DNA of 62,986 nt, the filler included, from Platydemus manokwari (lineage: Eukaryota): NCBI GenBank assembly GCA_037951405.1. It is 6 parts of 6 records of this genome, joined end to end, with 100 filler letters (N's around TTAATTAATTAA, not from the genome) between each part and the next. Parts side by side here need not be neighbours in the genome. Positions count along the whole stretch, not along the records: positions 10,041 to 20,410 come from JBBMOY011139328.1; 5 more parts are not named here. One strand, written 5' to 3'. The translations under genes and the position numbers were made by a program. How positions within the stretch are numbered: the first letter of the stretch is position 1; each line of letters opens with the position of its first letter. Below are positions 12,998 to 14,674 of the stretch, piece after piece. The notes under the pieces were generated by a model. It ran no database searches. It saw only the letters and a list, made by a program, of their open reading frames with translations, and was not told the origin of the DNA.

Positions 12998-14621
12998 TTA
13001 CACATATGAGTCAAGTAGTTTGTATTCACCATCTAGTCCATGTGGGTCAGGGAAATATTCGAATTTAGACTCCCGACCGCTTCGCTTAGATTCATCCGTC
13101 CATAGGGATTGCTTGACACGATACAATGGTGTATCAGACAGAGTGACGATATGGCAACGACGGCGAATTGCCTTAATGCGCGATGATGGCCAACTCGGGT
13201 TAATAACCTGGTCAATATCATTGGAGCAAATTATTCGACGTAGACCTTTGACTAAAACTCCGGTGCCGTACTTGACATTTATAGACGTTGTCATCTCGAC
13301 ATCCGTGATGTTTATGAGCTCCTCAGGTAGCCATGTAGAAAGGGCGAGGTCATCAATGACTACTCCATCATACTCGAATTTATTCGGGCCCAATCTCTCG
13401 AAATCTTGTCTGATGGTAACATGTAGGGGTGTTGAGAAATGAGACAGAGCATAGTTCGTTTTTCCTACCCCTAAAAAACAATCAATAGGGTTTGAGCACA
13501 ACTTTCATTACCTGTTGGTCCGATGAGTATAACACACAAGTTGGTGAACTTAATAAAAGGGAAGGCCCAATTATCACTAAAATTCGGCTTCGACACACAT
13601 CCTAATTTTCTGTGGAGGGTCTGCTCGAGTTTGGGTGCCATTCGTATATACTCTAATGGTTTCTCCTCCTCCACCATCTTCATACCTTCCGTCACTGATC
13701 GCACACATAGGAAGCGAGACCAGAAATCATCATCAATACTCCTACGCTTAACAGTACCGAAACCAAATTTGACACCGCCCTGCACACGTGTATCTTCCTT
13801 ACTACAGTAATCGATGGCTGCCTGCACCTCAGGCTCAGGGATACCCTTAATGAATGGGATGTCCAGAAACTTTTTCGCCGCCGGATACGTGCGTGCATTC
13901 TTGAACGTGATAAACAACTCCATGTGTGCAAAGCCATTTATACTCATCTCTTCCTGCCCCACTGCAAAATTACATGCGTCATACATCTTCGTTTGCAACT
14001 CAGGGCGTGCGTGCCACACACTCATAGGAACTGAGAATCGGAAATTTCTAAATCTCTGCCGCGGGTCGGCGGATGTATTGACAGGGCCTGGAATATATTG
14101 TGTGTCATTTCGGGCACCAGTATCTCCGGTGCGACATACACTTGTTTCGCCATTAGTATCTGGAAGTACTGCTCCAGCGGAGAGCAATAGTAGTGATCTA
14201 TACATACATAATTAAGTGGTGACATAAAAAATATACCGTGCGGCATCATCTGCATCAACTGACACACACTCGAGTTTTCGTTCATCAGGTGTGCGTGTTT
14301 GGGTGTTATGACGGAAGCTAAGGCGTCCAGATACTGAACTTGTAGGAACACATTTACGGCTTCTCTTAGCCTGATTTCCATCATAAGCCTGTGTTGTAGG
14401 AATTTCGACGGGGCTATACTTGTGGCATAGTTCATTAAACTCGTCGGGATCGATGACAAGATCCGGGAGCGGGCTTGGTTGTGTCGGCCTAGTACACGTT
14501 AATAAAATTAACATACAATCAGTGTGTACCGGTCAAATAATCGGCAGCATTCATCGTAAATCCCATCGATGTCAACTTGGCTATCTGGGATTCGGTCTCC
14601 GTTAATACTGCTCTGGGACAT
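12998..14621 (-). CDS. rep: CRESS-DNA-virus-type Rep (HUH endonuclease + SF3 helicase), 500 aa; exons 14621-14530, 14488-14237, 14197-13512, 13470-12998
   Basis: Motif I RNFRFSV, motif II VGQEE...AHMELF, motif III AIDYCSKEDT, Walker A GPTG|VGKT (restored by splicing), Walker B VVIDDL, INVKYG, motif C IICSN and Arg finger AIRRR. Three GT-AG introns of 41, 39 and 41 nt leave 1503 nt with no internal stop. The last two exons are secure; the first exon is less certain. Confidence 0.92.
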
Positions 14622-14674
14622 TCTGATGCGTATACTGATGGTTTGATATTGGCAACTGAATATGGCGCCATCAT
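14022..14674 (-). CDS. ORF-Y: 190-aa hypothetical protein overlapping the Rep N-terminus in another frame; exons 14674-14530, 14488-14237, 14197-14022
   Basis: Starts at aaaatcATGATGGCG. Removing the same two introns as Rep gives a stop-free 573-nt frame (MMAPYSVANIK...SQIAKLTSMGF...LTG|RHNQARSRILSS...MPH|DHYYCSP...SDSQFL) that ends over Rep motif I. Confidence 0.6.

Follow-up and report, generated by a model that had tools for sequence, protein, structure and literature searches.

The locus raises the question of whether the second reading frame that lies open over the 5′ part of a Rep gene in the flatworm Platydemus manokwari is a gene in its own right, and how much of it belongs to the element that carries Rep. 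In the window (i.e., the whole stretch of 62,986 nucleotides analysed here, filler included), an earlier note had drawn this frame, referred to as ORF-Y, as an accessory protein sharing two introns with Rep. Judged from sequence, the overlap is real and likely contains a conserved accessory gene; its first exon as drawn is doubtful, its UBA reading is unsupported, and the associated splice switch is a candidate only.

The contiguous piece that carries the ORF-Y/Rep cassette spans positions 10041–20410. Five identical, artificial-looking spacers (9941–10040, 20411–20510, 30002–30101, 42251–42350 and 52611–52710, each consisting of 44 N, a 12-nt all-frame stop linker and another 44 N) make the window look like joined pieces, so that the host-type genes found on other pieces, i.e., eRF1 (36223–37644, minus strand, with introns of 58 and 48 nt), a protein kinase (46663–47466, minus strand) and a RING finger protein (53062–53790, plus strand), need not be linked to the cassette. 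The GC content of the window is mostly 0.20–0.35, with an island of 0.44–0.46 at 13000–17000. In run X1, a single unbranched contig spans 11500–14712 with 0 differences and a depth of 15.4, a value that is not independent support since X1 may be the window's own source; run X2 yielded short pieces only, none of them within the cassette. Summed contig depth in X1 is ~15 over the Rep cassette, 105 in 14437–14703 and 180–1090 over 14704–17640, which shows that a low-copy Rep cassette adjoins repeated DNA, the end of which the resolution of the depth table places only to within 14437–14703 (mean of 105 vs. 15). More repeated sequence (summed depth of 130–830) is present at 17900–19500, including, near 19057, 25 nt that resemble the intron-1 patch.

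With predicted introns 1 and 2 removed, ORF-Y runs on the minus strand from an ATG at 14674 (with a further ATG at 14671) to a TGA at 14024–14022 over Rep motif I, and comprises 190 codons. Its ATG lies 53 nt ahead of the Rep ATG at 14621, and both frames overlap by 520 nt, all of which reproduces what had been described. The frame also stays open through intron 2, yielding 203 aa if this intron is retained. From its own ATG, and with all three predicted introns removed, the Rep frame comprises 500 codons and has its motif I core at residue 167. The S/T/P/D-rich N-terminal extension attributed to Rep is thus present, but measures ~162–166 aa instead of the ~150 aa claimed. The features of the locus are listed in Table 1.

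Table 1. Features of the ORF-Y/Rep cassette and the adjoining repeated sequence (positions in the window).
Feature	Position	Strand	Basis
Decayed multi-copy LTR-retroelement-like sequence: LTR-like from 17651 to ~17382, gag-like frames with a CCHC knuckle, ORFs 16292–15267 and 15202–14744	14675–17651	minus	Depth; zf-CCHC E 0.004; TG...CA ends
Exon 1, carrying the ATGs of ORF-Y (14674/14671) and of the Rep frame (14621); of doubtful origin, probably the end of a frame of the adjacent retroelement	14530–14674	minus	Frame continuity; LTR patch
LTR-matching patch, candidate retroelement/virus junction (last 12 nt of exon 1 and 38/41 nt of intron 1)	14492–14541	minus	Match to 17588–17536
Intron 1 (41 nt, GC 0.29, GT-AG, stops in both frames)	14489–14529	minus	Predicted only
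Exon 2, conserved ORF-Y core overlapping the S/T/P/D-rich Rep extension; predicted long helix at 14411–14307	14237–14488	minus	ORF3L homology
Intron 2 (39 nt, 3n, GC 0.23), read through by the ORF-Y frame and closed by a TAA for Rep; a candidate switch between retention and splicing	14198–14236	minus	Predicted
Exon 3 part of ORF-Y, ending at the TGA over Rep motif I	14022–14197	minus	No significant similarity to relatives by itself
Rep exon with HUH nuclease motifs I, II and III and the start of Walker A	13512–14197	minus	Pfam, relatives, motifs
Intron 3 (41 nt), splitting Walker A	13471–13511	minus	GT-AG prediction; colinear joining with relatives
Rep SF3 helicase exon with the end of Walker A, Walker B and motif C; stop at 13000–12998	12998–13470	minus	Amino acid identity to L002/PEVE; motifs
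AT-rich stretch 3′ of Rep in which an 8-mer recurs; may be left over from the terminal part of the element	12640–12997	minus	8-mer counts

The Rep is of the CRESS type (HUH plus SF3), with RCR motifs I, II and III as well as Walker A, Walker B and motif C all found, and with an E at the second His position of motif II, as is likewise the case in the relatives P0001, P0005 and P0008. A search with the Rep exon among 1.84 billion representatives revealed 55 relatives at E<=0.001 and 8 at E<=1e-10. The Pfam Viral_Rep match of this exon (E 0.0015, 19.1 bits) stays below the gathering cut-off of 26, and a Pfam scan gave no Viral_Rep match for the Rep of PEVE, a known flatworm virus-like element, either; a word-index search with the Rep exon (33 candidates) and scans of viral contigs with single exons returned no match. 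In a tree of 49 rows (8 of 57 rows having been dropped as short), the window Rep groups with the PEVE Rep in a clade of seven rows (support 97/98). Both are 45% identical in the nuclease region, while the helicase of the window Rep is 51% identical at the amino acid level to that of PEVE and 68% to that of L002, a metagenome contig. The latter (positions 1–1338) also holds the closest Rep at the DNA level (67% over 250 nt), in an AT-rich context with three intron-like segments and two helicase breaks. Relatives P0003, P0004 and P0006 are uninterrupted across Walker A and both halves of the window Rep join colinearly with them, whereas P0010 and P0017 end at this motif, which together fits the predicted intron 3. 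Moreover, P0001 carries an uninterrupted extension of ~220 aa ahead of motif I. An 8-mer occurs in 3 copies in the 400 nt located 3′ of the window Rep (vs. 2 copies in the rest of the window) and in 2 copies at 4960–5460 behind the PEVE Rep of the viral contig L001 (vs. 0 in its first 4960 nt), and may possibly be a putative Rep-binding or terminal-repeat remnant. No stable hairpin was detected at 12520–12680, and neither an inverted repeat around the cassette nor terminal repeats were found.

The viral contig L001 (5699 nt), which contains this PEVE Rep, also carries an ORF at 3130–3927 that was deposited as ORF3L (AAK53630.1) with unassigned function. Situated like ORF-Y, in the same place and the same frame relative to Rep, ORF3L has its start 47 nt ahead of an ATG in the Rep frame and extends beyond motif I. 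Unjoined, ORF-Y and ORF3L match by BLASTP with an E of 2e-4 (19/67 identical), and after removal of the introns, excluding the stretch that covers motif I, their alignment scores 76 vs. 31.3±5.1 for shuffled sequences (0/2000). When ORF3L was compared with the frames of the window, ORF-Y was the best of 1375 targets (E 4.5e-5), and exon 2 against one ORF3L exon, with no joining involved, scored 50 vs. 27.6±4.9 (4/3000). In contrast, the Rep frames of this same stretch show no such similarity (33 vs. 31.8, 751/2000; 1926/3000 and 1186/3000 when unjoined), i.e., it is the accessory frame and not the Rep frame that holds conserved sequence. The similarity is limited to exon 2, exon 3 alone not being significant. 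The sole long gap in the alignment (16 aa) coincides with a 48-nt GT-AG segment of L001, and dropping this segment lifts the exon-2 score from 57 to 71.

Among 1844 candidates aligned to ORF-Y, only ORF3L and P0063 matched. P0063 is 73% identical to ORF3L, from which it diverges exactly at the second L001 donor, and its match to the window ORF-Y is not significant (E 10, 141/1000). In L002, the equivalent frame is open over 88 codons, to just before motif I; its protein resembles ORF3L (11/2000), with no significant similarity to the window ORF-Y (score of 22, 1814/2000). A profile of these three relatives missed the window ORF-Y with default columns and recovered it with an E of 2e-5 when all columns were kept. 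A codon-position pattern in the alignment (32/45/28 of 75) was dropped as circular, chance alignments yielding 0.40/0.57/0.31, and a Met-dipeptide test on P0001 gave a p-value of 0.12. As far as sequence can tell, the ORF-Y/ORF3L similarity is of modest size and comes from a single independent lineage, while the core of ORF-Y (exon 2) is very probably a real conserved gene and the homologue of ORF3L. The proposal that ORF-Y is a real accessory gene therefore likely holds for this core, given its alignment to ORF3L and the lack of one between the Rep frames. Of the two overlapping frames, the Rep tail is likely the unconstrained one.

This overlap cannot be seen in the PEVE deposit, because there Rep (272 aa) begins only beyond motif I and ORF3L still contains 16 intron-like residues. 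If the GT-AG segments 3420–3467 and 3906–3961 of L001 (within 3130–4822) are taken as introns, the Rep frame is open from 3177 onwards and across motif I. The PEVE Rep would then gain motif I and a 200-residue tail, and its deposited version has thus probably been cut short. On the opposite strand of this contig (85–3048, minus strand), AT-rich gaps part ORF1L and ORF2L from each other and from the shorter frames in between, and all of these may be exons of one spliced structural gene. In the window, no convincing tblastx or pairwise match to ORF1L or ORF2L was found within 11500–17700, and the window copy is a partial PEVE-like element.

The 5′ end of ORF-Y abuts the retroelement-like sequence, which may also have a primer-site likeness. 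No protease, RT or integrase was recognised in the retroelement ORFs scanned; the ORF at 16292–15267 (341 aa) matched no family, and no full second LTR is located within the window. Further along this sequence (14904–15202, minus strand), two frames, corresponding to those of ORF-Y and Rep, are jointly open over ~100 codons; one is L/Q/K-rich and the other P/T/R-rich. The ORFs at 14744–15202 and 14904–15212 were considered as a second ORF-Y/Rep-tail pair and rejected, as they show no similarity to ORF-Y or ORF3L (only 1 of 14 comparisons reached 15/1000).

The end of exon 1 and nearly all of intron 1 match the LTR-like sequence of this neighbour in the same orientation (14541–14492 vs. 17588–17536), with 43 identities in 56 columns and a score of 38 vs. 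19.6±2.3 (0/2000). This is the best of 388 window stretches, its flanks not being alignable, and when 74 pieces of the cassette were compared with the whole window, the patch again came out on top (38, the next scoring 32). Moreover, exon 1 is in the same frame as the ORF at 14744–15202, across one TGA (14746–14744). No AT-rich promoter-like stretch was found upstream of exon 1, unlike in L001, and PEVE has no intron at the place of intron 1. It is therefore fairly probable, on these comparisons, that exon 1 and intron 1 derive from the retroelement, in which case the 190-aa protein as drawn would be a chimera or would not be made at all.

The full model of the earlier note, in which exon 1 and intron 1 are native, the 190-aa (or 203-aa) ORF-Y and the 500-aa Rep are intact, and the LTR likeness arose by chance or by a later small insertion turned intron, is unlikely, even if several observations speak for it and against a junction. 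A single GT-AG removal provides both frames with an ATG, the offset between these ATGs is similar to that in PEVE (53 vs. 47 nt) with no out-of-frame ATG between the starts in either, and intron 1 is sized like the other two (41, 39 and 41 nt, all of low GC). Exon 1 furthermore has a weak colinear 18-residue match to ORF3L, one unbranched contig traverses the supposed junction, and base composition cannot separate exon 1 from exons 2–3 (p 0.89). However, the gain that exon 1 brings to the ORF3L alignment is not significant (553/5000), and in 2321 simulated junctions arbitrary DNA of the adjacent element gave both frames a start via one donor in 11.7% of cases. Also, the unspliced frame from 14498 aligns with ORF3L from its first residue exactly as well as the spliced one (86 vs. 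86). The survival of two frames, which had been put forward as support for intron 1, thus loses its weight, and intron 1 itself, matching LTR-like sequence next door, is doubtful as a true intron of this gene.

Intron 2 poses a different problem. The claim that ORF-Y shares it with Rep is not confirmed, as the ORF-Y frame is open through it and ORF-Y scores higher against ORF3L with intron 2 retained (86 vs. 76). A 3n intron-like segment within the overlap, open in the ORF-Y frame only and stopping Rep, is present in 3/3 loci, and differs in phase among them (39 nt and phase 1 in the window, 48 nt and phase 2 in L001, 51 nt and phase 0 in L002, where the donor lies at the contig edge and alternatives of 41 and 39 nt exist). 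This count is biased, as the segments were found as Rep-interrupting stretches, and shuffled intron interiors reproduce the pattern in 25%, 22% and 12% of cases, before the 1-in-3 for length. The 3n intron is therefore a candidate for a working splice switch that we would put somewhat short of even, going by sequence features.

It is rather improbable that no such switch exists at all, with a real ORF-Y, a Rep that starts at 14205 (388 aa), an untranslated upstream Rep extension, and intron 2 as simply an AT-rich piece of ORF-Y. Intron 2 does contain this alternative Rep-frame ATG, located after the Rep-frame stop, and the better alignment upon retention is as expected from such a reading; the Rep frame upstream of intron 2 would, in the window, be open by chance with a probability of 0.10. 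In L001, however, the corresponding probability is 0.028 upstream of the segment and 0.0002 over the whole overlap, and, compared with the window protein, the segment itself is cleanly inserted and bounded by GT-AG. Given the ORF-Y protein, the chance of an open Rep frame is 0.035, 0.0002 and 0.029 in the window, L001 and L002, respectively, and the long extension of P0001 is uninterrupted.

That ORF-Y is a chance open frame, held open by the codon make-up of the low-complexity Rep extension, is very unlikely. The frame was open in only 0.7–1.0% of 20000 synonymous recodings of the Rep extension and in 0.05% of codon permutations, and over the 327 codons of the Rep core this same frame is interrupted by 14 stops, which together indicates that its openness is more than chance; taken unjoined and exon by exon, the chances are higher and the signal weaker (exon 2, 0.061; exon 3, 0.42). 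Homologous cassettes with an intact Rep and frequent stops in the ORF-Y frame, which the earlier note had named as a refutation, were looked for, and over the Rep extension the frame has 0 stops in 3/3 loci, L001 and L002 included (chances of 0.007–0.010 for the window, 0.047 and 0.060). It is also the ORF-Y frame that shows the protein similarity, and the Rep frame shows none. Nevertheless, the lack of significance against L002 and P0063 is what a chance frame would give, as are the database searches: no match in a word-index search (20 candidates) or in PHROGs (0/8), no usable one in Atlas and recognition 1630 (best Atlas value of 0.76), and, by sequence in the PDB, one match each at E 0.27 and 0.37, the single one for ORF-Y being at E 0.37.

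Least probable of all is that ORF-Y is a UBA protein recruiting the host ubiquitin system: the noted SQIAKLTSMGF is present, and exon 1 matches Pfam UBA_7 (E 0.0034) and UBA (E 0.0073), but at 16.6–17.7 bits vs. cut-offs of 22.4 and 27, in one of 24 proteins scanned and over positions 2–19 only of profiles of 37–48, while ORF3L has no UBA match at E<=1 in Pfam and aligns HNF to MGF (in a weak part of the alignment). The match spans 14596–14543 in a probably non-viral exon, stopping 2 nt short of the LTR patch, and, if real, would more likely be a truncated domain from the retroelement frame than a part of ORF-Y.

Structure prediction, which the earlier note had suggested together with Foldseek, gave a poor and unreliable 155-residue model (pLDDT of 39.7). 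The exon-2 model consists of helices only (pTM of 0.37), with residues 31–50 forming one long amphipathic helix near pLDDT 90; Foldseek returned 0 matches for this model at E<=0.001. ORF-Y has no transmembrane helix (best 19-residue hydropathy of 1.27) and no LxCxE or LxxLL motif, and the scanned proteins gave no Pfam match to the Gemini C4 family, nor to NS2.

We consider it moderately probable that ORF-Y is what survives, as a core, of an accessory gene for a helical non-structural protein, carried by a PEVE-like ssDNA element and read in a second frame over the long N-terminal tail of its Rep; this copy is likely integrated, and its true 5′ end was probably replaced by retrotransposon DNA. 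In the source element, a single promoter would give rise to a single pre-mRNA of which the first AUG opens ORF-Y. Ribosomes scanning past this AUG would start ~50 nt later in the other frame and produce Rep, and the layout of the start codons (ORF-Y AUG, then Rep AUG) is compatible with such leaky scanning. The Rep so made would bear a low-complexity tail of 160–205 residues, the sequence of which would be free to drift. When retained, the short 3n intron would let ORF-Y read through and stop the Rep frame, and when spliced, it would allow Rep to be made. ORF-Y itself might act by its conserved amphipathic helix as a nuclear protein-binding factor that supports replication or dampens host responses; such an accessory role in replication or host control is drawn by analogy only to densovirus NS2 or geminivirus RepA/C4, and is tentative, indeed rather doubtful. 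Improbable, finally, is the broader view of PEVE-like elements as overlooked intron-bearing ssDNA viruses, in which the accessory frame would be the older, constrained one and the 160–220-residue tail of Rep overprinted, in which three lineages would independently have placed a 3n intron as a switch, and in which the retrotransposon would here have supplied promoter, first exon and donor, restoring the register of both frames in a live chimeric two-protein gene.

No description of the ORF-Y/Rep overlap was found in the literature searched, although the original PEVE genome paper (Rebrikov 2002) may already discuss it. The window copy resembles PEVE in having a Rep of the same clade, an overlapping ORF that corresponds in frame and location and whose protein is detectably similar, and a 3n intron in the overlap. 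It differs in lying in AT-rich DNA beside a retroelement, in having its introns elsewhere, and in having ~35–40 residues fewer in the C-terminal half. PEVE is described as extrachromosomal and was not found integrated, with the related PIVE being integrated in Schmidtea (PMC3198968). For orphan ORF3L, ORF-Y is the first distant homologue among the sources searched, and the locus adds a gene model for a little-studied flatworm element. Replitrons, which reside in eukaryotic genomes and have a Y1 HUH Rep that is linked to CRESS Reps, are described as lacking a helicase and being of high copy (PMC10288648). Unlike these, the window Rep has an SF3 helicase and a flat single-contig depth of ~15, without terminal repeats. 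In an anemone, cressvirus fragments are joined to retrotransposon-like host DNA, and a +1 overprinted ORF is reported for another virus group, with planaria not mentioned in the available portion of that preprint (bioRxiv 10.1101/2024.03.25.586562).

In ambidensoviruses, a second protein (NS2) in another frame over the 5′ part of NS1 is produced by leaky scanning (PMC12297876). The analogy with NS1/NS2, which had been invoked for ORF-Y, fits as a way of working; the Rep here is, however, CRESS-type instead of a parvoviral NS1, and the accessory ORF starts first. In geminiviruses, the intron is located within Rep and gives rise to truncated RepA, and it is the nuclease domain that C4 overlaps. 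As in these viruses, the accessory ORF overlaps Rep, but the window intron is situated upstream of motif I, in the tail, and its retention would leave only the protein of the other frame. Intron retention vs. removal decides whether full geminivirus Rep is made (PMC13649057). Overlapping accessory genes and splice-controlled Rep are thus already known in other ssDNA viruses, and the arrangement found here is not new in kind.
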